A DNA stretch of 64,000 nt from Halarcobacter sp. (GTDB lineage: Bacteria > Campylobacterota > Campylobacteria > Campylobacterales > Arcobacteraceae): positions 96,001-160,000 of the forward strand of contig OY781089.1 of the NCBI GenBank assembly GCA_963676565.1. Direction: 5' to 3'. The position numbers and the translations under genes are program-made. Each line of letters starts with the position of its first letter. The first letter of the stretch is position 1. The notes under the pieces are model-generated. The model worked only from the letters and a program-made list of their open reading frames with translations, was not told the origin of the DNA and searched no databases. Shown here in pieces: positions 770 to 30,924 of this stretch.

Positions 770-791
770 AAAGTTTTTAACTTTCTATTTT
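763..791. terminator. Bidirectional intrinsic terminator-like hairpin between convergent genes
   Basis: AAAATAGAAAGTT-ttt-AACTTTCTATTTT perfect inverted repeat at the convergent stops. Confidence 0.6.
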
Positions 792-1154
792 CTTTAACTC
801 TTCATACTCTTCATCTGTAAAAATTCTAGACCTTGTTAAAAATTGATATCCTTCATCAATCTCAAGTGAAAAAGAGTTACCAAAGGCACCTTTTTCCTCT
901 TTCACATCAACAATTATTTGAGAGTGTCTAAAATATTCAAACTGTTCATGATCAATAAAAAACTCTACACCACAAATTTCACCAAGTTTTACATTTCTAC
1001 TTGGTACATAAAAGTCAGCTTTTTCATAACACATTGGAGATGTTCCATCACAACAACCACCACTTTGATTAAATACTAATTCCCCATTTTTTTCAATTAA
1101 CATCTCAATAACTTTTTGTGCTTCAGGTGTAGCTATTACTCTTCTAATATCCAT
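777..1154 (-). CDS. DUF779 family protein (aldehyde dehydrogenase-associated)
   Basis: QSGGCCDGTSPMCY motif and the usual position downstream of an AldB/ExaC-type ALDH. Confidence 0.88.
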   Translation of the reverse strand: MDIRRVIATPEAQKVIEMLIEKNGELVFNQSGGCCDGTSPMCYEKADFYVPSRNVKLGEICGVEFFIDHEQFEYFRHSQIIVDVKEEKGAFGNSFSLEIDEGYQFLTRSRIFTDEEYEELKKIES

Positions 1155-1326: not shown

Positions 1327-2820
1327 TTAAAAGAATCCTAAAGCATTTTTGCTGTAAGAAGTTAAGATATTTTTAGTATGTCTATAAGAGTTTAACATCA
1401 TCATGTGAGTTTCTCTACCGATACCAGATTTTTTGTATCCACCAAATGATGCATGTGATGGGTACATGTGGTAACAGTTAACCCAAACTCTACCAGCTTC
1501 AATTCCTCTAGAGAATTTATGTAATTGGTGCGCATCTCTTGACCATACACCTGAACCTAATCCGTAGATAGTATCATTTGCAATCTCTAATGCTTCATCT
1601 TCATCTTTAAATGTAGTTACTGCTAATACAGGTCCAAAAATCTCTTCTTGGAAGATTCTCATTTTATTGTGACCTTTGAAGATTGTTGGTTGAATATAGA
1701 ATCCATTTGGATTTACTTCAGACTCATAAGCATCTCCACCAATTAGACACTCAGCACCCTCTTCTTTACCAATTTTGATATATTCCATAATTTTTTCTTT
1801 TTGGTTAGAAGAACATTGAGCACCCATCATACACTCAGGATCTAATGGATTACCTAATTTAATAGCTGCAACTCTTTCAAGTACTCTTTCCATAAATGGC
1901 TCATAAATTGACTCTTGGATTAATGCTCTTGAAGGACAAGTACAAACCTCACCTGAGTTAAATGCGAATAATACAAGACCTTCAATTGCTTTATCGAAGA
2001 ACTCATCATCAGCATCCATAATTGACTCTAAGAAAATATTTGGAGATTTACCACCAAGTTCTAAAGTAGAAGGGATAATATTCTCAGTTGCATATTGCAT
2101 AATTAATTGACCAGTTGTAGTCTCACCTGTAAATCCTACTTTTTTAACATCTGGGTGAGTTGATAAGAATTTACCAATTTTTCCACCTGAACCATTAATA
2201 ATATTAACTGTACCAGCTGGTAATACTTCTTGAATAGCTTCCATCATTAATAAAATAGACATTGGAGTTGCACTCGCTGGTTTCATAACAACACAGTTAC
2301 CTGCTGCTAATGCAGGAGCTAATTTCCATGCAGCCATTAATAATGGGAAGTTCCATGGAATAATTTGAGCAACAACACCATATGGCTCATAAACCTCTTG
2401 AGAAATAGTATTTTCATCTAAATCAGCAACTGTACCAGCTTCTGATCTAATAACTGATGCAAAATATCTAAAATGATCAACAACTAAAGGAACGTCTGCT
2501 GCTAAAGTTTCTCTTACAGCTTTTCCGTTATCTAGTGTTTCTGCAACTGCTAAACTTTCTAATTTTGCTTCAATTGCATCAGCAACTTTATTTAACATAG
2601 TAGATCTTTCTACTACTGAAGTGTGTTTGTAAGATTCAAAAGCAGTTTTTGCAGCTTGAATTGCTAATTCAACATCTTCTTCATTTGATCTTGGAATTCT
2701 AGTTAATACTTCACCATCAACTGGAGAAATATTATCAAAATACTCACCACTTTTTGGAGCTACCCACTCTCCACCAATAAAGTTCTCATATTGAGGTTTA
2801 AATTCTGGTTTACTATACAT
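1327..2820 (-). CDS. exaC: NAD-dependent aldehyde (acetaldehyde) dehydrogenase, AldB/ExaC/PedI type
   Basis: IIPWNFP, GFTGET, LELGGKSP, catalytic GEVCTC and EEIFGPV motifs. The likely start is ATG 2820 (MYSKPEF) behind an AAGGA RBS; the track's upstream extension is promoter DNA. Confidence 0.9.
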   Translation of the reverse strand: MYSKPEFKPQYENFIGGEWVAPKSGEYFDNISPVDGEVLTRIPRSNEEDVELAIQAAKTAFESYKHTSVVERSTMLNKVADAIEAKLESLAVAETLDNGKAVRETLAADVPLVVDHFRYFASVIRSEAGTVADLDENTISQEVYEPYGVVAQIIPWNFPLLMAAWKLAPALAAGNCVVMKPASATPMSILLMMEAIQEVLPAGTVNIINGSGGKIGKFLSTHPDVKKVGFTGETTTGQLIMQYATENIIPSTLELGGKSPNIFLESIMDADDEFFDKAIEGLVLFAFNSGEVCTCPSRALIQESIYEPFMERVLERVAAIKLGNPLDPECMMGAQCSSNQKEKIMEYIKIGKEEGAECLIGGDAYESEVNPNGFYIQPTIFKGHNKMRIFQEEIFGPVLAVTTFKDEDEALEIANDTIYGLGSGVWSRDAHQLHKFSRGIEAGRVWVNCYHMYPSHASFGGYKKSGIGRETHMMMLNSYRHTKNILTSYSKNALGFF

Positions 2821-2885
2821 ATCTTTTCCTTTATTTTTTAATTGAAAATAAATACTCAAAAGGTATCTATTTTTTGAATATTGAA

Positions 2886-2939
2886 ATCTTACACGAGAAT
2901 TATAGCCTGAATTTAGCGATTGCGTAGCATTAACGTAGC
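2886..2939 (-). promoter_or_regulatory. Promoter with four GCTA direct repeats (11-bp period) and -10 TAAGAT
   Basis: TAGC on + at 2903, 2914, 2925 and 2936. TAAGAT (2891-2886) lies 11 nt past the last repeat. Confidence 0.7.
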
Positions 2940-3031
2940 AATTAGAAAAAAATGGTAACAATACCATGAAATAGGGCTTTTATCAATTGAAATTTTGTTA
3001 AAAAATTAAAAAATTATGCTACACTTTTTTT

Positions 3032-4924
3032 ATGAAAACATATAACTACACATTTTTCAATAACAACTTAACTGATTTAATTGATTATAGTATATTTAAA
3101 GATAAAGAAAATGTTCTAATTCAAATATTTTCTGGTCATGATTCAAGCACATTGGAGTTAATTACAAAAACAGTAATGGATAATATTCCACAGGCAGTAT
3201 GTTTAGGGACAACTACCGATGGAGAGATATGTGAATCAAAAATCTCTACACTTAAAACAATTATATCAATTTCAATTTTTGATAATACATATTTAAAAGC
3301 TTATTATATGAAAGGGGATGACGCATTTAATATAGGATATGAGATTGCACAAAAAGTTATCACCGATAATACAAAGTTAATAATCACTTTTACCGATGGA
3401 ACTGGGACAAATGCTGAAGAGTATTTGAAAGGTATAGAAAAATATGATAATTCTATAATGGTATGTGGTGGTATGGCAGGAGATAATGGAGTATTTAAAC
3501 AAACCTTTATCTCTTTAGGAAAGCAAATCTATCCTAAAGGGTATATAGCAGTTTCACTTAACTCAGATATATTAAAAGTAACAAACGCGAGAAAGTTTGA
3601 TTGGGTTCCAATAGGTTTAGAGCATACAATAGATGAAGTTGATGGAAATAGAATTTATAAAATCTCGGGGATGAGTCCTTCTGAGTTTTATAAAAAATAT
3701 TTAGGTGAGAGTGTTGCGCAAACAGAGTTTCCTTTAATAGTTGAAAGAAATGGGATACCAACAGCAAGAGCAGTACTTGAACAGCACAGAGATGGAAGTT
3801 TAAGTTGTGGAGGAAATTTAAGAAAAGGTGATATAGTTAGACTTGGTTTTGGGGATGCAGAATCTATAATGAATAATCCACTTAGTGCTTTAGATACAAG
3901 TTTTGATCATCCAATTGAAACTTTTTTCTTATATTCTTGTATGGCAAGAAGAAGGTATTTAAGAGAATTAATAAAACTTGAAACACAACCTTTTGCAGTT
4001 ATTGCTCCAACTTCTGGATTTTTTACTTATGCAGAGTTTTTCCATAGAGATGGTCATAATGAATTATTAAATCAAACATTAACAGTAGTAGCATTAAGTG
4101 AACATGATAAAAAAGTTAATGCATTGGAAATTTATCCAGAGAAGAAAACAAAATCAAAAAAAGATGCTGCCTTTGCAAGAACTTTAAGATCTCTTACTCA
4201 CTTAGTACAAAAAAGTACAGATGATTATCAAGACCAATCAAAAAGTTTAAAGGAATCAGAACTTTATGCACAAAACCTGCTAACGTCACAAAAACAATTT
4301 TTAAAACATGCAGTTCATGAAACAAATACACCACTTTCAATAATAATGGCAAACATTGAATTATATGAAATGGAAAATGGTAAAAATCAATACTTATCAA
4401 ATATTGAAGTAGCTATGAAAAATCTTTTTTCTATATATGATGATTTAAGTTATTTAGTAAAAAAAGATCAAATAGATTACCCTGAACATAAAATTGATTT
4501 TAAAGATTTTGTTAGAAGTAGAGTTGAGTTTTTTAACCAAGTTGCAACTAAAGTAAAATCAAAATTTGTTTTTAAAGCACCAAAAGAACCTATGGTTTTA
4601 CATTTTAATGAATCTAAACTACAAAGAATAATTGATAACAATCTTACAAATGCCATAAAATACACTTATGAAAATGAAGATATTTATGTAACATTAAAAA
4701 AAGAAGGAACTCACTTTAAACTTATGGTTTCAAGCCATTCAAAAAAAATCCAAGATCCAGACAAAATCTTTAAAGAATATTATAGAGAAGAGAAATCAAA
4801 AGATGGATTTGGATTGGGATTAAATTTAGTAAAAAGAATTTGTGATGAAGAGGGTGTTGAAATATATTTAGAATCTAACGAATATTTCACATCATTTGTT
4901 TATCTATTTAAAGGGGAAAGATGA
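3032..4924 (+). CDS. Cytoplasmic FIST-domain sensor histidine kinase
   Basis: FIST N/C motifs (GTTTDGEI, GGMAGD, YSCMARR, GFFTYAE), H-box HETNTPL, NNLTNAIKY and GFGLGL. No transmembrane segment seen. Confidence 0.88.
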   Translation: MKTYNYTFFNNNLTDLIDYSIFKDKENVLIQIFSGHDSSTLELITKTVMDNIPQAVCLGTTTDGEICESKISTLKTIISISIFDNTYLKAYYMKGDDAFNIGYEIAQKVITDNTKLIITFTDGTGTNAEEYLKGIEKYDNSIMVCGGMAGDNGVFKQTFISLGKQIYPKGYIAVSLNSDILKVTNARKFDWVPIGLEHTIDEVDGNRIYKISGMSPSEFYKKYLGESVAQTEFPLIVERNGIPTARAVLEQHRDGSLSCGGNLRKGDIVRLGFGDAESIMNNPLSALDTSFDHPIETFFLYSCMARRRYLRELIKLETQPFAVIAPTSGFFTYAEFFHRDGHNELLNQTLTVVALSEHDKKVNALEIYPEKKTKSKKDAAFARTLRSLTHLVQKSTDDYQDQSKSLKESELYAQNLLTSQKQFLKHAVHETNTPLSIIMANIELYEMENGKNQYLSNIEVAMKNLFSIYDDLSYLVKKDQIDYPEHKIDFKDFVRSRVEFFNQVATKVKSKFVFKAPKEPMVLHFNESKLQRIIDNNLTNAIKYTYENEDIYVTLKKEGTHFKLMVSSHSKKIQDPDKIFKEYYREEKSKDGFGLGLNLVKRICDEEGVEIYLESNEYFTSFVYLFKGER

Positions 4925-5583
4925 AAATTTTATTATTAGAAGATGATATTATGCTAAATGAGGCAATAACTCAATATCTTAGAACAGTAGGTCACTCTGT
5001 TCAATCTGTAAAAGATGGAGATGAGTGTCTAAAAAAATTAGATGAAGAAAAATTTGACCTTCTTGTTTTTGATATTAATGTTCCAAGTATTGATGGCCTT
5101 ACTATTTTAGAAGATTTACATAAAAAGAAAAGAATGGTACCAACTATTTTTATTTCTGCACTTATAGATATTGAAGATATCTCAAGGGCCTTTGATATTG
5201 GATGTCATGATTATTTAAAAAAACCATTTCACTTAAAAGAATTAAATCTTAGAATTGAAAAAATTCTAAAAACAAGAACTGCACCAATGAACCATAAAAG
5301 ATTATCAAAATCATACAGTTTTGATAGTGAAAGTATGACATTATATTTTAACAACGAACCACACATCTTACCCAAAAGACAACTTCAAATTATAGAACTA
5401 CTTACAAATAATAGAAGTTTAGTTTGTAACTATGATATGTTTAGGGATTACGTTTGGAATGACGACTTTATTGATAATGCAACAATTAGAGCAGAGGTAA
5501 ATAGAGTTAAAAAAGTTTTAAAAGAGGATTTTATTGTAAATGTTAGAGGTATTGGTTATATGGTTGAAAGACCTAGTTCTTAA
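4921..5583 (+). CDS. OmpR-family DNA-binding response regulator
   Basis: LLEDD, FDINVP and KPF receiver motifs plus a winged-helix C-terminus (NVRGIGY). ATGA overlap with the kinase. Confidence 0.92.
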   Translation: MKILLLEDDIMLNEAITQYLRTVGHSVQSVKDGDECLKKLDEEKFDLLVFDINVPSIDGLTILEDLHKKKRMVPTIFISALIDIEDISRAFDIGCHDYLKKPFHLKELNLRIEKILKTRTAPMNHKRLSKSYSFDSESMTLYFNNEPHILPKRQLQIIELLTNNRSLVCNYDMFRDYVWNDDFIDNATIRAEVNRVKKVLKEDFIVNVRGIGYMVERPSS

Positions 5584-5600
5584 GTAATATACTTAAGAAC
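5576..5600. terminator. Hairpin at convergent stops (response regulator / pqqE)
   Basis: GTTCTTAAGTA-ata-TACTTAAGAAC inverted repeat. Confidence 0.55.
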
Positions 5601-6723
5601 AACAGGTTTGTTTTTCAATAAATTTTAAAGAGTTTTGTTTATTTCTATAAATAGGTTGACTATCACTTTTATTTGCATTCTCAACTATTTTTTTAACAAC
5701 TCCATGATAAGCTGATTTATCACAAACTGGATCTGCTTCATGCATATCTTGTGTTAATGCATATGCTTGGCATCTGCATCCACCAAAATCTTTCTCTTTT
5801 TCAGGACAAGATCTGCATGTTGGATTCATCCATTCATCACCTCTAAAAAAATTAAAAGCTTTTGATTCATACCAAATCTCTTTTACAGAAGACTCCTTTA
5901 CATTTGGAAAATCTATTGGTAAAGTATTTGCAGTATTACATGGAAGAGCTATTCCATCTGGATTAATTGTTAAAAAAGTTGTTCCCCATCCATTCATACA
6001 TGCCTTTGGTCTATTTTCATAATAATCAGGTACTACAAAAAATACTTTCATATCTTTTCTTTTTTCCCTATAAAAATTTGTTACTTCCATAGCCTTGTCA
6101 AGTTGTTCTTTACTTGGTAAAAGAGCATCAACATTTTCTAATGCCCACCCATAGTATTGAATATTTGCAATCTCTAAATAGTTTGCTCCAAGCTCATCAC
6201 AAAACTCAATTATCTCACCAACTTGCTCAATATTTTGTCTTGTGATACAAGTATTTATAATAAGTTGCATACCAAGTTCTTTTACCTCTTTTGCAAAGGC
6301 AATTTTATCTTTCATTGCTGATTTATTGTTTGTAATTAAAGTCATAGTATTTTCATCATGAGACTGAATACCTAATTGAACAGTTTTAAGTCCAGCTTCT
6401 TTTAACTTTTTTAAAACTCCCTTTTCACCACCTACACCAGAAGTGATTAAGTTTGTATAAAATTTTAAATCATTTGCATATCTTACTACATCAACAATAT
6501 CTTTATTTAGTAAAGGTTCACCACCTGAAATTCCTAATTGAACAGCCCCTAAAGCTCTAGTTTCATCTAAAACTTTAAACCAATCTTCTTTACTCATACC
6601 ATCTTTTGTATTTGCAAAATCTAATTGATTATAACAATAAGTACACTCTAAAGGGCATTTGTGAGTTAACTCTAAAAGTACCCACAAAGGTGGTTTAATC
6701 CCCGACTTTTCATTAGTTGACAT
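5593..6723 (-). CDS. pqqE: PqqA peptide cyclase, radical SAM/SPASM
   Basis: PPLWVLLELTHKCPLECTYCYN, RPKACMNGWG and DFGGCRCQA motifs. Confidence 0.95.
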   Translation of the reverse strand: MSTNEKSGIKPPLWVLLELTHKCPLECTYCYNQLDFANTKDGMSKEDWFKVLDETRALGAVQLGISGGEPLLNKDIVDVVRYANDLKFYTNLITSGVGGEKGVLKKLKEAGLKTVQLGIQSHDENTMTLITNNKSAMKDKIAFAKEVKELGMQLIINTCITRQNIEQVGEIIEFCDELGANYLEIANIQYYGWALENVDALLPSKEQLDKAMEVTNFYREKRKDMKVFFVVPDYYENRPKACMNGWGTTFLTINPDGIALPCNTANTLPIDFPNVKESSVKEIWYESKAFNFFRGDEWMNPTCRSCPEKEKDFGGCRCQAYALTQDMHEADPVCDKSAYHGVVKKIVENANKSDSQPIYRNKQNSLKFIEKQTCCS

Positions 6724-6982
6724 AATTTACCCACTTTCTATCAAAGGCTTCATCAAAAAATGCTTCCACATCTTTTTCTAATCCTGACATCTCAAACTTT
6801 TTTTCCAATGTTGAAACTATTTCATTAAAATTCTTAGTTCCATCACATTGGTTCATTATTTCACCAGCACTTTGATTTAGTTGAACCATACCTTCTGGGT
6901 ATAATAAAACAAAACAATCTTGTGCTTGCTCAAATTGTAATTGAAAGTGTTCATTCACTACAATTAATTTTTCTTTGTTCAT
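6713..6982 (-). CDS. pqqD: PqqA-binding chaperone (RiPP recognition element)
   Basis: [19 protein letters not shown] motif, between pqqC and pqqE. Start chosen by RBS spacing. Confidence 0.9.
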
Positions 6983-7709
6983 TTTCATAACCTTCAATAT
7001 TGAAATACGGTGGTCTTTTTAATTCGTATGCCAAATATAAAGCATCACACATAGTCCAAAGTATATCAAGTTTAAACTGTAAAATTTCAAAAGCTTTATT
7101 TTGAAGTTCAACTGTATTAAACTCTTCTAAAGTGATTGAAAGTCCATGTTGAACATCCCTTCTTGCTTCACTCAATCTTTTTTGGAAATATCTCAAACCT
7201 TTTGCTTCAATCCAAGGATAATTATCTGGCCATGTACTTAATCTTTGTTGGTGAATTTGAGGTGCAAACATCTCAGTTAAAGATGACATTGCAGCTTCTT
7301 TCCAAGGTCTTTGTTTTGCAAAGTTAATATAAGCATCTACTGCAAATTTAACTGATGGTAAAACATATTTATGAGAAATTAAATCCTCTTTATTTAATCC
7401 AACAGCTTCACCTAATTCAAGCCAAGCTTCAATTCCACCACCAACACTATCATGGTCAATAATTCTATCAATCCATTTTCTTCTATCTTCTAAAGGTGGG
7501 TTATTTGACATAATTGCTGCATCTTTAATTGGAATTGCTGTTTGATAATAAAATCTATTTGCTACCCAGCCTTGGATTTCCTCTTTTGTACAATCCCCTT
7601 GATACATTCTAATATGAAATGGATGGTGAATGTGATACATATCACCCATACCTCTTAACTTTGCTTCAAACTCTTCTTTACTTAGTAATTCACTCATTTT
7701 TTTTGTCAT
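6951..7709 (-). CDS. pqqC: Pyrroloquinoline-quinone synthase
   Basis: [36 protein letters not shown] and FKLDILW motifs. Confidence 0.96.
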
Positions 7710-7772: not shown

Positions 7773-8690
7773 TTATATATCTATTCTCATCCCATCATAA
7801 GAAACTTCAATCCCATGGGAAATAAGTTCTTTATATTCAGGATTTTCTTCATCTAAGATTGGATTTGTATTGTTAATATGAATTAATATTTTTCGTGGTT
7901 TTTCTAAAGTATCTAAAATTTTAATAAGCCCTTCTTCTCCACTTAAAGGGATATGCCCCATATCAGTGCCTAATTTAGTAGAAAACTTACCTTTTATCAT
8001 CTCATCATTTGTCCAAAGGGTTCCTTCTATTAAAAGAACATCTGCATTTCGCATCTCTTCAAAAACATGATCTTCCATAACCCCAAGACCAGGAAGATAA
8101 AACAATCTTTTTCCTGTATTTTTATTTACAACTGTAATTCCAATATTATCACCCTTTCTTGGATGATCTCTATGTGGTGAATATGGTGGTGCATTTGAAA
8201 TAAGTGCATGGGCATAAAACTCATATGAAGGCATCACTGGTATTTCAAATTTTGTAGTAGAATCTGGCAAGATTTCATGCCAAACAGTTCCTCCACCATC
8301 CCAATGTTGTAACATTTTCATAGTAGGAAATGATGAATTCAATTCTTCATTTACCTCTTTTGTACAATAAATTTGGTGAGGACAACCTTCCCTTAACATA
8401 AGTAAACCAGTTGTATGGTCTATTTGAGCATCGTTAAATACGATTGCTTTAATTTTAGTTTCTCTTTTTTTTGTTGGATGTAAAAAAGGTGAATTATGAA
8501 TTTGCTCTAAAATATCTGGGCTAGTATTAAGTAAAACCCAGTTCTCACCATCTTCACTAATAGTAATTGAACTTTGAGTTCTTTTTTTTATACTTTTTTT
8601 GCCTTCTCTGTAACCTTTACAATTGTCACAGTTACAATTAAATTGTGGTAAGCCACCACCTGCACCTGAACCTAGAACTTGAATCCTCAC
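7773..8690 (-). CDS. pqqB: PQQ biosynthesis protein B (metallo-beta-lactamase fold hydroxylase)
   Basis: VLGSGAGGGLPQFNCNCDNC, RTQSS, DHTTGL and LIHINNTNPIL motifs. Likely GTG start at 8690 after AAAGGA. Confidence 0.94.
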   Translation of the reverse strand: MRIQVLGSGAGGGLPQFNCNCDNCKGYREGKKSIKKRTQSSITISEDGENWVLLNTSPDILEQIHNSPFLHPTKKRETKIKAIVFNDAQIDHTTGLLMLREGCPHQIYCTKEVNEELNSSFPTMKMLQHWDGGGTVWHEILPDSTTKFEIPVMPSYEFYAHALISNAPPYSPHRDHPRKGDNIGITVVNKNTGKRLFYLPGLGVMEDHVFEEMRNADVLLIEGTLWTNDEMIKGKFSTKLGTDMGHIPLSGEEGLIKILDTLEKPRKILIHINNTNPILDEENPEYKELISHGIEVSYDGMRIDI

Positions 8691-8751
8691 AATATATCCT
8701 TTCATTTTTCCTCAAAGAAAAAAATTCCCACATTTTTTTGTTTGAAGAAAA

Positions 8752-8773
8752 GACTAGAGCAAAAGCTCTAGTC
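8752..8773 (-). terminator. Hairpin between pqqA and pqqB
   Basis: GACTAGAGC-TTTT-GCTCTAGTC followed by TTTTCTT on the minus strand, 12 nt after the pqqA stop. Confidence 0.75.
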
Positions 8774-8785
8774 AAGTTTAAAAAA

Positions 8786-8860
8786 TTACTTTGTACAAAT
8801 GTACATAGTAACTTCAAAACCAAATCTGTTATCTACGAATGTAGGTGTTTCCCATTTCAT
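8786..8860 (-). CDS. pqqA: PQQ precursor peptide PqqA, MKWETPTFVDNRFGFEVTMYICTK (24 aa; absent from the ORF track)
   Basis: Hand translation gives the W.xP..RFGFEVTMY core with ExxxY. AGGAGG RBS at 8874-8869, directly upstream of pqqB. Confidence 0.96.
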   Translation of the reverse strand: MKWETPTFVDNRFGFEVTMYICTK

Positions 8861-8896
8861 TTTAGTTACCTCCTTTTTTGATTTTCAGATTAACTA

Positions 8897-10678
8897 TTAT
8901 TTTTTAAATAATTTAAATACGTGAACAGTTCCACCTTGGTTTATATTCTTAATAAGTTTTGCAACTTCACCACCCCATAAAGGAACAGCTCCACCCCAAC
9001 CTGAAACGATTGCGATATATTGCTCACCATTTTGCTCCCAAGTAATAGGAGAAGAAACAATTCCAGAACCAGCATTGTATTTAAATAAAATCTCACCAGT
9101 TTCATCATCAAATGCTAAGAATTTACCTTCAGGAGTTCCTGTAAATACAAGTCCACCAGCAGTAGTTAAAACTCCACCCCATAGTGGTGCAGGGTTTTTA
9201 TATTCCCATTTAATTTTTCCTGTCATTGGCTCAATTGCTTTAAGTGAACCAATGTGATCTTCAAAGATTGGTTTAATTGTAAATCCAGCACCTAAGTAAG
9301 CAGCACCTTTTTTATAATGAATTGGTTGATTCCAAATATCCATTCCCCACTCATTTGAAGGAACATAGAATAATTCAGTCTTTTTAGAATAAGCCATTGG
9401 CATCCAGTTTTTACCACCTAAGAATGAAGGAACAGAGAATACTGATTTACCTTTTGAAGCATCACCAGGATTTCCAGGTCTTCCATCTGCTGTTAACATT
9501 GGTCTACCATTTTTATCAATTCCAGTTGCCCAAGTAATATTTGAAACAAATGGATTAGCAGTAACGAATTTACCATTAGTTCTATCTAATACATAGAAGA
9601 AACCATTTCTATCTGCAGTTGCAGCATATTTCTTACCATCTTTATTAAATGAAACTAACTCATTAACACCATCGAAATCCCATCCATCATGTGGAGTAGT
9701 TTGATAATGCCAAACAATTTTTCCTGTATCAGGATTAATTGCTAATCTTGAAGAAGAGTATAAGTTGTCTCCTGGTCTATTATGTGAGTTCCATGGTGCA
9801 GGGTTTCCTGTTCCAAAGAATAATAAATCAGTCTCAGAGTCATATGTACCACCAAGCCAAGTTGCAGCTCCACCAGTTTTCCATAAATCTCCAGGCCATG
9901 TTTTACCAGCTTCGCCACCAGTAATTCCATTTTCTTTTCCATTTAAGTAACCCATGTGACCTTCAACAGTTGGTCTAGTCCAAATTAGTTTACCAGTTTT
10001 AGCATCATAAGCTTCAACTTTACCAACAATACCAAACTCACCACCAGCTACACCAGTGATAATCATATCTTTAACAACTAATGGAGCAGCAGTAATAGAG
10101 TAACCATCTTTATATTCCGCTACTTTTTTCTTCCATACTGTTTTTCCAGTTTTTCTGTTTAATGCCACTAATTTAGCATCTAGTGTTCCAAAAACTACTA
10201 AATCACCATAAATTGCAGCACCTCTGTTGATTACATCACAACATGGTAAGATTCCACTTGGAAGTCTTGCATCATATTGCCATAACTCTTCACCAGTTGC
10301 TAAATCAATTGCATACATTCTAGAATAAGATGCAGTTACATACATAACACCATCTTTTACTAATGGTTGAGATTCTTGACCTCTTTGTTTTTCACCACCA
10401 AATGAGAAATTCCATACAGAAACTAAATCTTTAACAGTCTCTTTATTCACCTGAGTCAGTGGTGAAAATCTTTGACCATTTTGTCCATGTCCATATGTTA
10501 AAACATCCCCAGTTGTTTTATCATCATTTAAAATCTCATCATATGTTACAGATGTATATGATGGCTTTGTAACCGCTGATTTACTATCAGACATTGCAGT
10601 GTTGCTAGTCGCACATCCACTAATTAATGCAGAAAGCGTAACAGCTACTGCACTAGTTAGTAAAAAACTCTTTTTCAT
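8897..10678 (-). CDS. pedH: PQQ-dependent alcohol dehydrogenase, lanthanide-type (PedH/ExaF-like), predicted lipoprotein
   Basis: Vicinal PCCD, GGEFG, GNPAPW and FLGGKNW motifs. The active-site [13 protein letters not shown] has the extra Asp (D336). N-terminal lipobox ISGC. Confidence 0.88.
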
Positions 10679-10723: not shown

Positions 10724-10755
10724 AGTATATATGAGAAAAGTAGCAACAGTTTAGC
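10724..10755 (-). promoter_or_regulatory. pedH-pqq promoter: GCTA-N7-GCTA-N11-TATACT
   Basis: TAGC on + at 10741 and 10752; agtata at 10724-10729. Confidence 0.75.
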
Positions 10756-11533
10756 TATTGTTAACTTTTTTTGATTTAAACCCTAAAAATGCCATAATTA
10801 AAGTTATAATAAGAGATATTACTAGTACTAGAAGTGCCTGTGTATCGACCTTTAGGTATAGTGAGAACCTAATAGATTCTACAATATAAGTAAAAGGATT
10901 ATATGAAGAAATTTCATATAAAAGTATAGACGAATCTTTAATTTTCCAAAGTGGGTATAAAGCGGAACTTAAAAAGAACATTGGGAAGATAACAAAGTTC
11001 ATTACAGTTGCAAAATTTTCTAATTGTTTTATAACAGAAGAGATAAAAAGTGCAAAGGCATTAAGAATTATAGATGAAATTATAATTATAGGAATAGTTA
11101 CCACTATTGCCAAATATGAAATATCTACCCCATACAATTTAGCAATAAGTAAAAAAGTGATTGCTTGAATTGTTGATACTATTGAAGTTGCAAACATTTT
11201 ACAAAATAGTAAGAAATTTCTATTTATATAAGAAGATAAAAGTATTTTCATACTACCCATCTCCCTATCAAATATCATTGTTAAACTACTTTGCATACCA
11301 TTAAAAAGTAATACCATCCCAACAAGTCCTGGAACAATATAGGTTTCATAGGTGATATAAGTTTCATATGGAGGAGTAATAGCAAGTCCTAAAGCAGTTT
11401 TAAAACCAACTGAAAAGATAAATAGCCAAAGTAAAGGTCTAACAAGAGCTGAAAAAAATCTACTTTTTTGTTTAACGAATCTAATTAATTCTTTGTAGAT
11501 AATACCTTTCATACAATTAAAATATATATTCAT
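10751..11533 (-). CDS. pedC: ABC-2 type permease, PQQ-dependent alcohol dehydrogenase system (PedC-like)
   Basis: SALVRPLLWL, PPYETYITYETYIVPGL and NFVIFPMFFLSSALYPLW motifs. Confidence 0.82.
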   Translation of the reverse strand: MNIYFNCMKGIIYKELIRFVKQKSRFFSALVRPLLWLFIFSVGFKTALGLAITPPYETYITYETYIVPGLVGMVLLFNGMQSSLTMIFDREMGSMKILLSSYINRNFLLFCKMFATSIVSTIQAITFLLIAKLYGVDISYLAIVVTIPIIIISSIILNAFALFISSVIKQLENFATVMNFVIFPMFFLSSALYPLWKIKDSSILLYEISSYNPFTYIVESIRFSLYLKVDTQALLVLVISLIITLIMAFLGFKSKKVNNS

Positions 11534-11535
11534 GG

Positions 11536-12258
11536 CTATTTTACAATTTGATTGAAAGTATCAACCAAATTCTCCTTTTCATATTTTTCCATAATAGCAC
11601 TCACAATACCCGTTTCTACTATTTTACCATCTTTAATAAATGAAATTTCATCATCTTCATTTACCTCATCGAAAAGATGAGTAATCCAAAGAACACTTAG
11701 GTTTTCCCTTTTTACTAAATCTCTAACATAATCTAAGATATCAAATCTACTTTTTAAATCAAGTCCAACAGTAGGTTCATCAAGTAAAAGTAGTTTTGGT
11801 TTATTAATTAGAGCCCTTAAAATTTCAACTCTTCTTCTATGTCCTCCATTTAGTTTTCTAGCTGTAGTATCTAAATGTGGTTTTAATTCAAGTCTTTCAA
11901 TCTCATTTTCAATTGATTTTATTGTTTGTACAAAACCTAAGCCCTTTAATGAACCATAATAATAAAGATTTTGTCTAACAGTTAAATCTAAATCTAAAGT
12001 TGGTTCTTGAAAAACAATACCAATATTTTTTAAAGCTTCACTATAGTTTTTTATGGAGTGATTATTTATATTGATTTCACCAACTTCAAGTTTAAGAAGT
12101 CTTGTAATAAGTGAAAAAATAGTTGATTTTCCAGCTCCATTTAGTCCCAATAAAACTGAAAACTCACCTTTTTTTATATTAAAAGAAACCTTATCTAATA
12201 CCTGTTTCTTTCCATAGGAAAAATCTACCTCTTTTAATTCTAATATTTTTTCACTCAT
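11536..12258 (-). CDS. pedB: ABC ATP-binding protein, PQQ-ADH system (PedB-like)
   Basis: Walker A GLNGAGKST, FQEPTLDLDL, LNGGHRRRVE and LLLDEPTVGLD. Confidence 0.82.
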   Translation of the reverse strand: MSEKILELKEVDFSYGKKQVLDKVSFNIKKGEFSVLLGLNGAGKSTIFSLITRLLKLEVGEININNHSIKNYSEALKNIGIVFQEPTLDLDLTVRQNLYYYGSLKGLGFVQTIKSIENEIERLELKPHLDTTARKLNGGHRRRVEILRALINKPKLLLLDEPTVGLDLKSRFDILDYVRDLVKRENLSVLWITHLFDEVNEDDEISFIKDGKIVETGIVSAIMEKYEKENLVDTFNQIVK

Positions 12259-12270: not shown

Positions 12271-13242
12271 CTATTTACTAGGAATTACTGCTAATCCCCA
12301 AGGATATCTTCCTACTTTTATTGTTTTTTCTACTTTTAAAGAATCAACATCTATTACAGATACATCACCACTTACACCATTTGTAGTATAAAGTTTTTTC
12401 TCATTCTGGGCAAAAGCTAATTGCCAAACTCTTTTTCCAACTAATAAATACTTTATAACTTTATATGTTTTTGCATCAATTACAGCAACATGGTTAGCTG
12501 GTCCTAAAGCTACAAAGGCATATTTTCCATCGCTTGTTAGTTTAATACCAACTGGCTGAATTAAATCTTTAAAAATCCCAGGAATTTTAAAACCTAATTT
12601 TGCAACACTCTCTTTTGTTTTAGTGTCAACTACCACAACAGTCCCACCAATCTCACTTGATGCCCAAACTTTATCACCATTTTTTGAAAATTCTATATGT
12701 CTTGGTCTTGCATCCACTAAAGTATTATGAACAATCTCTTTTGTTTTTGTATCAATCCAATGTAAAAAGTTAGAAGTTTCTGATGTATTAATAGCCATAC
12801 TTCCATCAGGACTTACAGCCATCCCCTCAGGTTCTAAACCAACTTCAATTTGAGATACTACAGTTCTATTTGGAATATCTACAACAGTTACAATTCCATC
12901 ATTCTCATTTGATATATAAAGCTCTTTCCCATCTGGATGTAATGCAAACTGCTCTGGGTCCTCACCTGATGGTAAATTATATAAGATTTCCCCTGTTTTA
13001 GTATCCATAGCTTGAACTGTATCATCATCACTTGCACAAATATATAATTTTTTATAATCACTTGTAAGCAGTATTCCTCTAGGTCTTTGCCCTACTTCAT
13101 ATGTTTTTATAACTTTATTTGTATCTGAATCAATAACACTAATAGTATTGTCTTTCTCATTTGATACAAATATTGTATCTGCACTTAAGATTGATGCAGC
13201 CAATACTGATAAAATAGATGTAAAAATTAATTTCTTCATCAC
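12271..13242 (-). CDS. PQQ-dependent catabolism-associated YVTN beta-propeller protein (PedA2-like)
   Basis: Signal peptide plus VSNEKDNT, VGQRPRG, PSGEDPE, YTTNGVSGD and VGRYPWG repeats. Confidence 0.85.
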   Translation of the reverse strand: MMKKLIFTSILSVLAASILSADTIFVSNEKDNTISVIDSDTNKVIKTYEVGQRPRGILLTSDYKKLYICASDDDTVQAMDTKTGEILYNLPSGEDPEQFALHPDGKELYISNENDGIVTVVDIPNRTVVSQIEVGLEPEGMAVSPDGSMAINTSETSNFLHWIDTKTKEIVHNTLVDARPRHIEFSKNGDKVWASSEIGGTVVVVDTKTKESVAKLGFKIPGIFKDLIQPVGIKLTSDGKYAFVALGPANHVAVIDAKTYKVIKYLLVGKRVWQLAFAQNEKKLYTTNGVSGDVSVIDVDSLKVEKTIKVGRYPWGLAVIPSK

Positions 13243-13263: not shown

Positions 13264-13683
13264 TTATTCAACAATAAAAGTTGCTCTTTCTCTATCACTT
13301 TTAGCTGATGGTAAACCTAAAGTAAAAGTTCCTGGTTTAATAGGTATAAAAGTCATTTCAATTTCACCTTCATCATCAAACTCAAACCCATCTAAACCTA
13401 GTGGTCTTACTTCAATACCGTTAATAGATATTTGATTTACCCAAATATTTCTAAAAAAAGCTGCACCTACTATAGGTATTTCTCTAGAACCATCACTTTT
13501 TAAAACAAGTTCGTAATATTTACCCGATTCTAATTTATATGGTTCACTTGCAAGTGGTTGACCCACACTAATAGTAATAGGATTTAATTTAGTTTTAGAG
13601 TGTAATAAACCCTTCAAATTTTTAGCCGTTGCAAATTCTCCTGTTAAAAGTAGCATAGCTATTAATAATACAATTTTCTTCAT
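13264..13683 (-). CDS. Exported cupredoxin-fold-like protein lacking type-1 copper ligands
   Basis: Signal peptide and alternating beta-strand pattern ending FIPIKPGTF. Acidic patch DGFEFDDEGEIE, no Cys. Confidence 0.6.
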   Translation of the reverse strand: MKKIVLLIAMLLLTGEFATAKNLKGLLHSKTKLNPITISVGQPLASEPYKLESGKYYELVLKSDGSREIPIVGAAFFRNIWVNQISINGIEVRPLGLDGFEFDDEGEIEMTFIPIKPGTFTLGLPSAKSDRERATFIVE

Positions 13684-13825: not shown

Positions 13826-14977
13826 ATGAAACGATTATTTAGTCTATTTTTAATGTTAGGGTTTATAAATGCCTTTGCACTAGAAGTAAATATTTTATAT
13901 CTAGAACAAAAAATAAAAAAGCCTCCAGTACTTTCAAATATAATTGAAGACCCAGAAGATTTAGGATTAAAGGGGGCTCAAAAAGCTATAATAGACTCAA
14001 ATAAAAGTGCTAGATTTTTAAATCAAAAATACAATCTAATTGAAAAAATCTCTTATGATAAAGCTCAATTAAAAAAAGATTTTGAAGAATTTATAAATGC
14101 AGGTAACTCATATGTGGTATTAAATGTAGAAGATGATTTTTTAAAAGTGTTACTAAATGACCCACTTTCAAAAAAAGCTTTAATGGTAAATGCATCTAGT
14201 CCAACTACAAGTTTAAGACAAAACTACTGTTTACCAAACTTACTTCATACAGCTCCTTCAAATGCCATGCTTTATGATGGCTTAGTTCAATTTTTAGTAA
14301 AAAGAGATTTTAAAGATATCTTTTTAATAAGTGGAGAAAATCCAAAAGATAAAGAGATACTAAAAGATATAAAAAGGTCAGTAAAAAAATTTAATGCAAA
14401 AATTATAAAAGAAAAAGTTTGGGATAATAATTCAGATATTAGAAGAAAAGCAAATGCAGAATTTCCTGTATTTACACAAGCTAGTGATTATGATTTAATT
14501 ATGTTAGCTGACCATTATGGAGATTTTGGGGAGTTTATGTATTTTAATACTTGGCTTCCTAGACCAATAGCCGGAACTCAGGGATTAACTCCAACAGCTT
14601 GGCATAAAGTTATTGAAGCTTGGGGAGCAGCTCAAATGCAAAGTAGATTTGAAAAGTTTGCAAAAAGATGGATGCAATCAAAGGATTACACAAACTGGAC
14701 AGCAGTTAGATCTATCATTGGTGCAATCACAAAAACAAATTCTGCTGATTTAAAAACAAACCTTGATTTTATTCACTCTGATAAGTTTGATTTAGCAGCA
14801 TATATGGGAAGAAAATTATCATTTAGAGATTATAATGGACAGCTTAGAATGCCAATTTCACTTGTTCAACCTAGGGCACTTATTTCAGTTTCTCCACAAG
14901 TTGGCTTTTTACATCCTAAAACTGATTTAGATACTTTGGGTATTGCACCCTTTGAGATGAAGTGTAAAAATGATTAA
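13826..14977 (+). CDS. ABC transporter substrate-binding protein, PQQ-ADH system (PedA1-like)
   Basis: Type-I periplasmic binding fold with HTAPSNAMLYDGLVQFL, WGAAQMQSRF, LSFRDYNGQLR and SPQVGFLHP..LDTLG motifs. Confidence 0.82.
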   Translation: MKRLFSLFLMLGFINAFALEVNILYLEQKIKKPPVLSNIIEDPEDLGLKGAQKAIIDSNKSARFLNQKYNLIEKISYDKAQLKKDFEEFINAGNSYVVLNVEDDFLKVLLNDPLSKKALMVNASSPTTSLRQNYCLPNLLHTAPSNAMLYDGLVQFLVKRDFKDIFLISGENPKDKEILKDIKRSVKKFNAKIIKEKVWDNNSDIRRKANAEFPVFTQASDYDLIMLADHYGDFGEFMYFNTWLPRPIAGTQGLTPTAWHKVIEAWGAAQMQSRFEKFAKRWMQSKDYTNWTAVRSIIGAITKTNSADLKTNLDFIHSDKFDLAAYMGRKLSFRDYNGQLRMPISLVQPRALISVSPQVGFLHPKTDLDTLGIAPFEMKCKND

Positions 14978-15425
14978 ATCTTTTCTTGCACTTTTAGTTC
15001 TTAGCCTAAGTATAAATGCCTATGAGGTAACAGATAAAGATAATTACTTTACTGTAAAAATTCAAGATGAAAAATTTCATGAACTATATGTGAATTTAAA
15101 AGATGAAATAAATTTTAATTCATATGTTATAGTTCATGAATTAAATTTAGCAAAGTCTACTAAGGCTGTTGCTGATGCTCTAGAGGAAAAAGTTGTTGTA
15201 AAAAATGGAATAAATTTATTGATTTGTAAAACCTCATTTACCCTTAAAATGCATCAAGAAAATATTCACAATATGACTTTTTGTCCAATGGTTATCTCTA
15301 TATACGAAGATGAAACCTCAAACTATATATCTTTTAGGAAATATCACCCTCTAAATAACAATGATAAAATAGCACTTACTATAAATAAAAGACTAAAAAC
15401 ATTAATTTTAAACTCCCTTGATTAA
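14970..15425 (+). CDS. Exported DUF302-domain protein
   Basis: Signal peptide; LLICK...FCPMVISIYE pattern. Confidence 0.65.
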   Translation: MIKSFLALLVLSLSINAYEVTDKDNYFTVKIQDEKFHELYVNLKDEINFNSYVIVHELNLAKSTKAVADALEEKVVVKNGINLLICKTSFTLKMHQENIHNMTFCPMVISIYEDETSNYISFRKYHPLNNNDKIALTINKRLKTLILNSLD

Positions 15426-15509: not shown

Positions 15510-17636
15510 ATGAAAAATAATATAATAATACTATTGATAATTATTTGTTTCTCGATATTTTTTTTTCTAACTTTAGATATAAATAAAAATGAATTAATAA
15601 ATACAGAAAAAAAAGATGATAACTCCAAGATTGAATTAAAACTTGCCCATAATCTACCAAAAAATAGTGCTTTACATGAAGCATCTGTTTTATATGCAAA
15701 AAAAATAGCTGAACTTACAAAAAATAGAGTGGAAATTAAAATATTCCCTGAACAAAAATTAGGAAATGACTATCAAATGATAGAGCTGGCAAGTCAAGGA
15801 AAAATTGATATTATAATAACTCCTACTGCAAAAATGAGTGTATCAGTTCCCTCAATGCAATATGCAGACTTACCATTTTTATTTCCAACAAGAGAGGATG
15901 CCTATGAACTTTTAGATGGAGAAGTTGGGAAAATGATTCTAAAAGATTTAGATAAAATTGATCTTTTAGGTATTGGTTTTTGGGAGAATGGCTTTAAACA
16001 TTTTACTGCGAACTCTAAATTAACTAGTCCGACAGATTTCAAAGGCAAAAAGATTAGAGTTATGAAAAGTAGAATAATAATGGAGCAATTTAAAGCTTTA
16101 GGGGCACAAGCTATACCTATTGATTTTCATTCTACTAAAAAAGCTTTAGAAGATAAAGTTGTTGATGGACAGGAAAACCCTTTAGTTGCAATTGTAAATA
16201 TGCAATTTCATAAAGTTCAATCAAATTTAACTATAAGCGAACATGCATATTTACCATATTTATTTTCCATGAGTAAAAAAAGCTTACGAAAACTTCCTGT
16301 AGAGATTCAAGATATTTTAACTAATAATTTAGATGAGATTACAAAATGGGAAAGAAAAGAAACCCAAATAAGAGAAAAAGAGTTCCTAGAAACAATAAAA
16401 AATGAAGGTGTAAAAATACACTATTTAACAAAAGAAGAGAAAGAAGCCTTTAGAGAAAAAACTAAATATATTGTAAAAATGTATGAAAGAGTGATTGGTT
16501 CAAATATAATTTCTAAAACTGAAGAGATATTAAATAAAAAATATGCAAATAAAGATAATATATATTTTGGTTTAGATGTAAATCTTTCAATTGGAAATAA
16601 AGACTCAGGCTTATCTTTAAAAAGAGGCGTTGAATTGGCAATTGAAGAGATTAATTCAAATGGTGGATTATTAGGTAAAAAAATCAACCTTCTTACAAAA
16701 GATAATGAAGCTATTACAACTAAGGCTTTGAAAAATTTTAAAGAGTTCTCAAAAAATGACAATGTAAAAGTTGTAATAGGTGGGAAAAGAAGTTCTATAA
16801 TTTCAAAAGAACTAGAAGATATCCAAAAAAGTAAAAAACCTTATTTTTCACCTTGGGCATCTGCAGATAAAATTGTTAATAATGGTTATGAAGAAAACTA
16901 TATTTTTAGAGTTTCTACAAATAATAAATTTATTATAAATAGACTTTTAAAAGAGTCTTTAAAAGATGATAAAAAGCCCTTAATCGTTGTCGAAAACTCT
17001 ATTTGGGGAAGAGGAGCCCTAGAACTTATAAAACAAGACAATAAAGAGTTAGAATCTATTATTATAAACCAAGGTCAAACTAATTTTGATAATTTAATAT
17101 CTAAAATAAAACAACATAAAACAAAATCAATCTTAATGGTTTTAAATACTTTAGAAGCATCAAATATCTTAAAGACTTTGTATGAAAACCAAATAAAGAT
17201 ATCAATATCTTCACATTGGGGTATTTTAGGTGGAAAGTTTTATGAACAAAATAAAGAATACCTAAGTAATATCGATTTGAAATTTATTCAATCTTTTAGC
17301 TTTATAAAAAATAAATCAAAGAAAGCAGAAGAGTTTGCTTTAAGATATATCAAAAAATATGGTGAGAAATCTACTTATGATATAGTTTCTCCTTCCTCTG
17401 TTGCTCAAGCATATGATTCTACTATGATAATTGCACAAGCAATAAAAGATGCCAACTCCTTTGAGGGAGAAAAAATAAAAAATGCCCTAGAAAATTTAAA
17501 AGAATATAATGGTTTGATAAAAAAATATATAAAACCATTTAGTAAAACTGACCACGAAGCTTTAGAGAAAAAAGACTTTTTCTTTGCAAAATATGATCAA
17601 AAAGGAAGAGTTATTCCAATTGGTGAAATAAAGTAA
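15510..17636 (+). CDS. Membrane-anchored fusion of TRAP solute-binding (DctP) and LivJ-like ABC solute-binding domains
   Basis: N-terminal hydrophobic segment. DctP motifs (GKKIRVM, VVDGQENP), then a type-I binding domain (GVELAIEEINSNGGLLGKKI, AQAYDS). Confidence 0.8.
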   Translation: MKNNIIILLIIICFSIFFFLTLDINKNELINTEKKDDNSKIELKLAHNLPKNSALHEASVLYAKKIAELTKNRVEIKIFPEQKLGNDYQMIELASQGKIDIIITPTAKMSVSVPSMQYADLPFLFPTREDAYELLDGEVGKMILKDLDKIDLLGIGFWENGFKHFTANSKLTSPTDFKGKKIRVMKSRIIMEQFKALGAQAIPIDFHSTKKALEDKVVDGQENPLVAIVNMQFHKVQSNLTISEHAYLPYLFSMSKKSLRKLPVEIQDILTNNLDEITKWERKETQIREKEFLETIKNEGVKIHYLTKEEKEAFREKTKYIVKMYERVIGSNIISKTEEILNKKYANKDNIYFGLDVNLSIGNKDSGLSLKRGVELAIEEINSNGGLLGKKINLLTKDNEAITTKALKNFKEFSKNDNVKVVIGGKRSSIISKELEDIQKSKKPYFSPWASADKIVNNGYEENYIFRVSTNNKFIINRLLKESLKDDKKPLIVVENSIWGRGALELIKQDNKELESIIINQGQTNFDNLISKIKQHKTKSILMVLNTLEASNILKTLYENQIKISISSHWGILGGKFYEQNKEYLSNIDLKFIQSFSFIKNKSKKAEEFALRYIKKYGEKSTYDIVSPSSVAQAYDSTMIIAQAIKDANSFEGEKIKNALENLKEYNGLIKKYIKPFSKTDHEALEKKDFFFAKYDQKGRVIPIGEIK

Positions 17637-22272: not shown

Positions 22273-22305
22273 TCCAACATGCAAAAATTTCGCAAAAGGA
22301 TATAC

Positions 22306-22725
22306 ATGAATAAAATCGAAAAATTAACACTTGCAGTTTTGTTTTCTGCAATAACTGCATTTGGGCATGGAAGTGTTACACCACAAAAAGTTGACACAAC
22401 AGGTTTAGAACAATTAGGTGATACTTGGGTATCAGAAAATCCATATAGTACTGATAATGCAAGAGCTGTAGAGATTGGAAGATCTGGATATAGTGAAAAC
22501 TGTGCAAGATGTCATGGACTTGATGTTATCTCTGGTGGTATTGCTCCTGATTTAAGAGAGTTAGATAAGTTTGAAGATGAATACTTCTTAGGAAAAGTAT
22601 TAAGTGGAGTTACAAGAAATGGTAATGTTTATATGCCATCATTTGCTGAAGTTTTAAGTCAAGAAGCAATTTGGGCAATTAGAACATATATCATGGATAG
22701 AAGAGCAAAAGACGGTATAGAGTAA
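22306..22725 (+). CDS. pedF: Cytochrome c-550, electron acceptor of the quinoprotein ADH (PedF/ExaB)
   Basis: AFGHGSVTPQKVDT, ENPY, heme motif CARCH, SGGIAPDLR and YMP..LSQEAIWAIR. Start after AAAGGA. Confidence 0.9.
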   Translation: MNKIEKLTLAVLFSAITAFGHGSVTPQKVDTTGLEQLGDTWVSENPYSTDNARAVEIGRSGYSENCARCHGLDVISGGIAPDLRELDKFEDEYFLGKVLSGVTRNGNVYMPSFAEVLSQEAIWAIRTYIMDRRAKDGIE

Positions 22726-29256: not shown

Positions 29257-29607
29257 TTATTTAAAATTAAATAATTTTTTTAATTCATTTTTATATGAAG
29301 ATGAAATGTAATAATTGATTTGAAGCCCTTCCCTTTTTGAAATAAAAATACCAGCGTCTTTTAATTTTCTTAAGTGTTGAGAAACAGGAGATTGTTTCAT
29401 GTTTATCATATCACTTATATCACATACACAAAGTTTTTCATGTTTTAAAAGAAGATAAACAATTTTTAATCTAACTTCACTTCCTAAAAGGGAAAATATC
29501 TTTGCTTCTTTTATAAAAAACTCATCTAAAGCGGATAACTCTTTTCTTTCTTTTTCAATTAATTCTTCATTAATCTCGTATCTTAAACAGGTAGTATCGT
29601 TTTTCAA
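29257..29607 (-). CDS. ArsR/SmtB-family metalloregulator
   Basis: RLKIVYLL..LCVCDI...QSPVSQHLRKLK..REG..YY. Confidence 0.9.
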   Translation of the reverse strand: MKNDTTCLRYEINEELIEKERKELSALDEFFIKEAKIFSLLGSEVRLKIVYLLLKHEKLCVCDISDMINMKQSPVSQHLRKLKDAGIFISKREGLQINYYISSSYKNELKKLFNFK

Positions 29608-29622
29608 AATATTCCTTATGTT

Positions 29623-30795: not shown

Positions 30796-30807
30796 CATCA
30801 ACTCCAA

Positions 30808-30835
30808 TAGTATATTAGAATATACTAATATACTA
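30808..30835. promoter_or_regulatory. Probable ArsR/SmtB operator
   Basis: Perfect inverted repeat TAGTATATTAG-N6-CTAATATACTA directly upstream of the permease-ArsR operon. Confidence 0.65.
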
Positions 30836-30924
30836 CAATTAGCTTAATTAAAAATAAGTTATTCACTCTTTTAAAATAAATTTGACTTAATTTAGATAAA
30901 ATCTAAAAAAACTAAAGGTAAGGA

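Follow-up and report, generated by a model that had tools for sequence, protein, structure and literature searches.

Known alcohol dehydrogenases of the lanthanide and calcium types

Among the alcohol dehydrogenases (ADHs) that depend on pyrroloquinoline quinone (PQQ), the Asp-x-Asp (D-x-D) motif is an established marker of the lanthanide enzymes, according to two reports (10.1101/2020.02.25.964783; PMC11996626). The Asp is required for lanthanide function in XoxF1 and ExaF, in that XoxF1 D320A and ExaF D319S lose function with La3+ (10.1101/2020.02.25.964783). PedH of Pseudomonas putida has Asp where its calcium-type partner PedE has Ser295, and was active with rare-earth metals when tested (PMC5487730). 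PedH-dependent growth is described as requiring the ABC system PedA1A2BC, which is missing from P. aeruginosa PAO1, a strain without a lanthanide enzyme (PMC12997753). Most marine PQQ dehydrogenases have been reported as lanthanide-type. Here we analysed a 64,000-nucleotide stretch of Halarcobacter DNA (the window; bases 96001-160000 of a genome assembled as a single contig of 3,340,668 bases, 99.97% complete; G+C of the window, 27.9%), which encodes a PQQ-dependent ADH with the D-x-D motif. Judged from its sequence, the window probably carries a periplasmic alcohol oxidation route built on a lanthanide ADH of the PedH/ExaF type and completed by PedF, an ExaC-like dehydrogenase, pqqABCDE and pedA1A2BC-like genes. 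The gene (593 amino acids, aa) and its diagnostic codons lie as follows:

8897..10678, minus strand: PQQ-dependent alcohol dehydrogenase, PedH/ExaF type, 593 aa (TIGR03075, PDB scores, tree)
9671..9682, minus strand: codons of W333-D334-F335-D336 (translation of the open reading frame; HMMER alignment to PedH)

In P. putida the pqq operon is apart from the ped cluster (PMC12997753), whereas in the window pqqABCDE comes directly after the ADH gene. Compared to PedH of strain KT2440 (6ZCW/6ZCV), its best PDB match, the ADH shares the Glu, Asn, Asp and Asp residues together with the vicinal Cys pair, and Pseudomonas loci have pedA1A2BC-like, pedF, SoxYZ-like and zinc-hydrolase genes nearby, as in the window. 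Unlike PedH, however, the ADH is found in a member of the Campylobacterota, in a genome without a calcium-type partner PedE (TIGR03075 and tblastn over the genome); a lipobox-like LISGC and then a linker some 20 aa long stand at its N-terminus, and the regulatory genes beside it encode a FIST kinase and an OmpR-type regulator (PedS2/PedR2 were not searched for). ExaF of Methylorubrum extorquens AM1 falls on the same D-x-D side of the tree as the ADH. ExaF shares its methylotrophic host with XoxF and MxaF, whereas the genome of the ADH has no other enzyme of the family (TIGR03075). The XoxF enzymes (6OC5, 6DAM, 4MAE) have the D-x-D principle and PQQ in common with the ADH, but the ADH stands among ethanol/aldehyde genes (exaC-like, pedF) and not among methylotrophy genes. 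ExaA of P. aeruginosa (1FLG) and PedE belong to the same TIGR03075 family, with the same eight-bladed propeller and cytochrome c550 partner type, yet they carry Ser at the position of D336, are about 51% identical and lie on the opposite side of the best-supported branch.

The D-x-D motif and the type of the enzyme

A preliminary description of the window had located a lanthanide-diagnostic W333-D334-F335-D336 at 9671-9682, and translation of 8897-10678 on the minus strand returned exactly this position and these residues, i.e., W333 at 9680-9682, D334 at 9677-9679, F335 at 9674-9676 and D336 at 9671-9673, within a 13-residue stretch formed by residues 328-340. Over a 14-residue stretch around the motif, the ADH is identical to the PedH chains 6zcw and 6zcv in HMMER alignments, whereas ExaA (1flg) reads tpndawdfsgnnel in those same columns. 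The ADH and PedH have wdfdg where ExaA has wdfsg, in keeping with the description's statements that D-x-D marks lanthanide enzymes and that calcium enzymes carry D-x-S/A/T. D334 aligns with the catalytic Asp of PedH, and D336 with its extra, lanthanide-coordinating Asp. By alignment offsets, E214, N292, D334 and D336 correspond to residues 199, 281, 323 and 325 of 6zcv, which are presumably the metal ligands of PedH. The sole CC of the ADH, the vicinal pair C146-C147 within PCCDVINRG, is spelled with the same letters in PedH and ExaA; a vicinal Cys-Cys is an active-site feature of PQQ dehydrogenases of the methanol/ethanol family. The D-x-D motif is not due to chance.

The ADH contains a PQQ propeller according to Pfam and matched TIGR03075 (methanol/ethanol-family PQQ dehydrogenase, NCBIfam) at 784.4 bits against a cut-off of 480.05, over profile positions 3-530 of 530. 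The best PDB matches are PedH of P. putida (6zcw, 894.7 bits over residues 44-592; 6zcv, 890.9 bits), followed in third place by the calcium-type ExaA (1flg, 674.8 bits); lower in the ranking are quinohaemoprotein ADHs (up to about 400 bits) and the XoxF/MxaF methanol dehydrogenases (about 272-361 bits). Identity by BLASTP was 65.5% to the D-x-D enzyme of Pseudomonas juntendi, 70.4% to that of Methylorubrum rhodinum (presumably the orthologue of ExaF, judging by the genus name) and 75% to that of Halioxenophilus, against 51-51.6% for D-x-S enzymes; among named proteins, that of Arcobacter arenosus comes closest, at 97%. Assignment as a XoxF methanol dehydrogenase was rejected, because the XoxF chains score only about 357-361 bits (356.8-361.1) against 894.7 for PedH, and assignment as a calcium-type ExaA/PedE enzyme was rejected as well, since the residue that is Ser, Ala or Thr in that type is Asp (D336). 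Motif, PDB scores and tree thus support placing the ADH in the PedH/ExaF type (PQQ-ADH type 2b).

A single enzyme of the family in the genome

The preliminary description had called this the only quinoprotein ADH, with no calcium-type paralogue in the island, and had proposed a search for a PedE-type gene elsewhere. The ADH is the sole member in the island and across the genome: TIGR03075 gave one match from one candidate over the complete genome, and the next-best tblastn match of the ADH to the whole genome (E up to 10) reached only E = 0.075 and 32.7 bits. A hidden calcium-type paralogue or relic was accordingly rejected, none being detected by either search. With one family member present, the genome does not combine the calcium-type and lanthanide-type enzymes of a rare-earth switch. 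The description's remark that Pseudomonas clusters usually pair both enzymes is fair for the loci fetched, a WDFSG gene lying within 8 kb of the WDFDG gene in 11 of 19 Pseudomonadaceae loci, some of the others being cut by contig ends.

Other enzymes of alcohol or PQQ metabolism have their genes beyond the window. Far from it, at G000:C1:2576553-2577518, a six-bladed member of the GSDH family is encoded (PF07995, 377.7 bits), and PQQ may therefore serve a second, unrelated enzyme. Two genes of the iron-containing ADH (Fe-ADH) family, whose products are predicted to be cytoplasmic, lie at about 30.6 and 50.6 kb of the chromosome: one product is similar to AdhE, in its ADH half, or to lactaldehyde reductase (434.7 and 323.8 bits, both under the cut-offs), and the other to an alcohol dehydrogenase of the YqhD type (389.2 bits, under the cut-off). 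Two MDR-family oxidoreductases are also encoded elsewhere in the genome.

Distribution of the motif and of PedA1 in the Arcobacteraceae

We surveyed an evenly drawn sample of 151 Arcobacteraceae genomes, including the present one, with an ADH match threshold of E <= 1e-30. An ADH-type enzyme was found in 43 genomes, and the motif was inspected in all 43:

D-x-D (WDFDG or WDYDG) present: 40 genomes (genes cut or split in G039, G085 and G069)
WDFSG present: 7 genomes
D-x-D only: 36 genomes
Both types: 4 genomes (G018, G038, G061 and G074; paired genes 3-14 kb apart)
WDFSG only: 3 genomes (G123, G132 and G082)

D-x-D is retained, as WDFDG or WDYDG, in all 40 same-clade relatives. Since 36 of the 43 enzyme-bearing genomes have D-x-D alone, the lone D-x-D enzyme is the rule in this little-studied family, and the present genome is no exception. 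Of the three WDFSG-only genomes, G123 and G132 are from the window's own genus, and they lack PedA1 as well as PedA2.

At E <= 1e-30, TIGR03863 detected PedA1 in 39 of the 151 genomes. Of the 40 D-x-D genomes 38 have it, and it was missed in two fragmented assemblies (G036, 94% complete in 290 contigs; G039, 78% in 180 contigs); none of the three WDFSG-only genomes (95-100% complete) has it, and one of the 108 enzyme-free genomes (G019, 85% complete) does. PedA2 showed the same split as PedA1 on the five genomes tested. This distribution matches what is reported for Pseudomonas (PMC12997753), and the pedA1A2BC-like genes next to the ADH would agree with lanthanide use on the same account (PMC12997753).

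Two loci of the survey showed peculiarities of their own. In L053 (G069:C15:400400-402500) the D-x-D ADH matches the profile as overlapping pieces, 5-316 and 306-530, and many stops occur in the motif's reading frame across the locus; either a frameshift in the gene or a fault of the assembly may explain this. In L055, a contig of G038, which has both types, a pqqA-like stretch (87% identical) lies at about 6198 on the plus strand, between the WDFSG gene and pedB, a position that differs from the window, where pqqA follows the D-x-D gene.

Phylogeny and origin of the enzyme

We inferred a FastTree phylogeny of 136 rows, of which the family sample supplied 44 and a set of 80 named loci the other 92. 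The D-x-D and D-x-S labels need one change on this tree, at a branch with support of 100, and the ADH stands among the D-x-D rows, where its closest relatives are 98% identical. All 45 D-x-D rows from the Arcobacteraceae cluster together (support 100) beside the D-x-D enzymes of Alteromonadaceae and Pseudomonadaceae (support 99), with those of Methylobacteriaceae further out, and the Arcobacteraceae WDFSG rows group with the WDFSG enzymes of Pseudomonadaceae. The placement beside Alteromonadaceae and Pseudomonadaceae would fit an old transfer. Recent horizontal transfer was rejected: third-position GC is 0.157 in the ADH gene and 0.17 in exaC, against 0.153 in nusA and 0.163 in cysS, and because these values are like those of housekeeping genes there is no compositional sign of recent transfer. 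One named locus (L066), a contig of a metagenome-assembled genome (MAG) titled Klebsiella pneumoniae, has a D-x-D ADH that groups tightly with MAGs of Burkholderiales/Betaproteobacteria; its bin label looks wrong.

The N-terminus and putative lipid anchoring

At the N-terminus of the ADH (10603-10678, minus strand), the lipobox-like LISGC is followed by the linker, rich in Ser, Thr and Asn, before the conserved domain begins. Scored by a regular expression and not by a signal-peptide predictor, a lipobox was called in 24 of 37 full-length Arcobacteraceae D-x-D enzymes, against 3 of 83 rows from outside the family; it was also called in one of seven WDFSG enzymes, probably spuriously. Relatives without the lipobox Cys are also without the linker. 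These observations suggest a membrane-tethered PedH-type enzyme in much of the Arcobacteraceae.

The gene neighbourhood of the ADH

The genes around the ADH are:

777..1154, minus strand: DUF779 protein, downstream of the aldehyde dehydrogenase gene (Pfam PF05610, 124.6 bits)
1327..2967, minus strand: ExaC-like NAD-dependent acetaldehyde dehydrogenase (NF050026, 837.3 bits, just below the cut-off of 900; Pfam Aldedh)
3032-4924, plus strand: FIST-domain histidine kinase (Pfam)
4921-5583, plus strand: OmpR-type response regulator (Pfam)
5593-6723, minus strand: pqqE
6713-6997, minus strand: pqqD, named from position and conservation
6951-7709, minus strand: pqqC
7773-8705, minus strand: pqqB
8752..8773, minus strand: terminator-like hairpin between pqqA and pqqB (9 pairs, 5 of them G-C, then a T-rich tail)
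8786..8860, minus strand: pqqA precursor peptide, 24 aa, containing E-V-T-M-Y (open reading frame list; position and Glu-x3-Tyr)
10751-11533, minus strand: pedC-like ABC permease (TIGR03861, 346.3 bits, over the cut-off)
11536-12258, minus strand: pedB-like ATPase (TIGR03864, 289.8 bits, just under the cut-off of 302.25)
12271-13242, minus strand: pedA2-like beta-propeller protein (TIGR03866, 503.7 bits, over the cut-off)
13264..13683, minus strand: secreted protein of 139 aa between pedA2 and pedA1 (no Pfam or NCBIfam match)
13826..14977, plus strand: pedA1-like periplasmic binding protein of the quinoprotein-ADH-associated ABC system (TIGR03863, 416.5 bits against 413.6)
14970..15425, plus strand: protein of 151 aa downstream of pedA1 (no Pfam or NCBIfam match)
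22279..22725, plus strand: cytochrome c550 PedF (TIGR04494, 184.6 bits against a cut-off of 122)
22730-23599, plus strand: SBP_bac_3 binding protein (Pfam PF00497)
23614-24357, plus strand: quinoprotein-dehydrogenase-associated SoxYZ-like carrier (TIGR04557/TIGR04558 pair, over the cut-offs)
24354-25259, plus strand: quinoprotein relay zinc hydrolase 1 (TIGR04557/TIGR04558 pair, over the cut-offs)

All four ped genes flank the ADH gene, the pedC-, pedB- and pedA2-like genes lying upstream and the pedA1-like gene being divergent, and pqqABCDE lies immediately downstream on the minus strand. In pqqB, pqqC and pqqE the NCBIfam models TIGR02108, TIGR02111 and TIGR02109, respectively, were each matched above the cut-off, while pqqA, presumably rightly so named, is recognised by its position and by the Glu-x3-Tyr pattern; it is 87-95% identical across the islands of relatives. 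The hairpin after pqqA may act as an attenuator that leaves more transcript of pqqA than of pqqB-E. The Arcobacteraceae loci compared repeat the core order pedA1 / pedA2-B-C-ADH-pqqABCDE / regulator-kinase / exaC, and the FIST kinase and OmpR-type regulator, which adjoin pqqE in 6 of 7 of these loci, are candidate regulators of the island.

A probable lanthanide-dependent route and its alternatives

Taking the observed motif, family, clade, sole copy and gene neighbourhood together, we infer the identity of the metal and of the substrates, the route of the electrons and the physiological dependence as follows. The ADH would be a periplasmic, probably lipid-anchored enzyme in which the lanthanide is bound by E214, N292, D334 and D336 together with PQQ, the latter being supplied by the adjacent pqqABCDE. 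It would oxidise ethanol and other short alcohols, with the electrons passing to the cytochrome c550 PedF, its likely acceptor, and the aldehyde passing to the ExaC-like dehydrogenase; the pedA1A2BC-like ABC system may supply or sense the metal. Since the ADH is the sole quinoprotein of the methanol/ethanol family, the periplasmic quinoprotein route should work only with lanthanides, and this route is probably lanthanide-dependent.

The preliminary description went further, in suggesting that the pathway may depend strictly on lanthanides. The D-x-D type and the lack of a calcium-type paralogue are borne out, and the pedA1A2BC-like genes agree with lanthanide use, but strict dependence is an extrapolation, and for the cell as a whole it is unproven because the two cytoplasmic Fe-ADH genes exist, whose products could oxidise alcohols without lanthanides. 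An ADH of the lanthanide type in a cell that is independent of it, where NAD(P)-linked Fe-ADHs take over and the quinoprotein route is an optional, high-efficiency bypass, falls only a little short of an even chance in our judgement. In P. putida, less efficient routes are noted as possible for some substrates (PMC5487730), and two Fe-ADH family genes are indeed present here; against this, neither reaches an equivalog cut-off, and both lie outside the island, where it is the ExaC-like gene that adjoins the quinoprotein genes. It is unlikely that the D-x-D enzyme uses Ca2+ as well as, or instead of, lanthanides, such that the motif overstates the dependence. Published text speaks of an "at least facultative" dependence and of mixed cofactors within families such as type 2b (PMC11996626), and XoxF1 made without La3+ binds Ca2+; with calcium bound, however, XoxF1 was inactive or nearly so, and ExaF D319S no longer functioned efficiently with La3+ (10.1101/2020.02.25.964783). 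The ADH is, moreover, far nearer to PedH than to the calcium-type ExaA in PDB scores, and the transporter genes follow the distribution of the D-x-D enzyme, not that of the D-x-S enzyme. A motif that is a chance or decayed feature of a non-functional gene is a reading that we consider extremely improbable: no supporting point was found for it, and it is opposed by the 593-aa open frame that spans the TIGR03075 profile almost from end to end, by the conservation of E214, N292, D334, D336 and C146-C147 and the 98%-identical relatives in the tree, and by a third-position GC in line with the housekeeping genes.

Several points weigh against the lanthanide-dependent route as proposed here. Metal dependence is read wholly from sequence, and with the Fe-ADH and MDR-family genes at hand growth on alcohols need not rely on the ADH. 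The tree was made with FastTree only, without bootstrap or a rooting test, and kept the motif columns in its alignment; the D-x-D state of the named loci is ascertained, because they were partly found with the pattern PHDGWDFD. The sampled genomes, furthermore, are relatives of one another, so that the counts of PedA1 against D-x-D are not independent events and are descriptive only.

The marker value of D-x-D, the PedH/ExaF type, the transporter and the prevalence of lanthanide-type enzymes in the ocean are already known; the noteworthy part is the family-wide pattern, i.e., a lone D-x-D enzyme with the transporter and a few calcium-only species without it. We tentatively propose, while leaning somewhat against it, that the Arcobacteraceae are a lineage outside the Pseudomonadota with obligately rare-earth-dependent periplasmic alcohol oxidation, in which a lipid-anchored PedH-type enzyme would be inherited as a block with pqqABCDE and pedA1A2BC, the calcium type being a rare exception. 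If lanthanide dependence holds, lanthanide-dependent metabolism would reach the Campylobacterota, and a failure of these bacteria to grow on alcohols in the usual media, which lack lanthanides, may be a false negative. Cultivable small-genome hosts that hold one enzyme, a cofactor operon and a transporter operon together, without a calcium-type back-up, would then give a clean background for studying how rare earths are found in seawater and sediment. If dependence is obligate, cultivable marine and sediment relatives of Arcobacter would model picomolar lanthanide acquisition without calcium back-up. In the consulted portions of the literature on Arcobacter or Campylobacterota with lanthanide, PQQ or ethanol, no tie to a lanthanide enzyme was found, the supplements of surveys, which may list such genes, lying outside that coverage.

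Metatranscriptome matches and further genes of the window

Contigs of four metatranscriptome runs from three studies match the ADH and exaC genes at 90-99% likeness, and one contig of 1386 bases covers 8872-10262 with 57 differences. Such contigs cannot show level, strand or transcription, and uncovered parts carry no meaning, so the matches are a weak hint of expression in relatives. In the salt-marsh metatranscriptome X18, the bin 8656-9146 (pqqA and the 3' end of the ADH gene) has a summed contig word depth of 1476.8, and every other bin has at most 22.4.

The two unassigned proteins next to the ped genes differ in their occurrence among the seven Arcobacteraceae loci compared: the 151-aa protein is present in six (32-57% identity), whereas the 139-aa protein has a tblastn match in one. 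The 139-aa reading frame beside pedA2 was considered as the cytochrome c550 and rejected, as it is without CxxCH and the actual PedF lies at 22279-22725. The nearest Atlas clusters of this protein are unnamed or "copper-binding"/cupredoxin-like, which is a lead only.

The genes at 15510-19357 (plus strand) encode a 708-aa protein in which a DctP-type TRAP binding domain is fused to a type-1 periplasmic binding domain and, next in order, a histidine kinase with a Cache domain. The pair appears to be a solute sensor placed at the island's edge; it had no tblastn match within the 8-kb flanks of the relatives compared. The window is also rich in signalling genes; those at 36023-40742 (minus strand) and 48765-57259 code, among others, for a hybrid PAS kinase of 1453 aa, a number of receiver proteins, a regulator with an HD domain, and another FIST protein accompanied by its kinases. 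At 29257-33232, an ArsR-type regulator lies beside an SO_0444-family Cu/Zn efflux protein, and this pair is adjoined by a molybdoenzyme like the alpha subunit of formate dehydrogenase (513 bits, under the cut-off).

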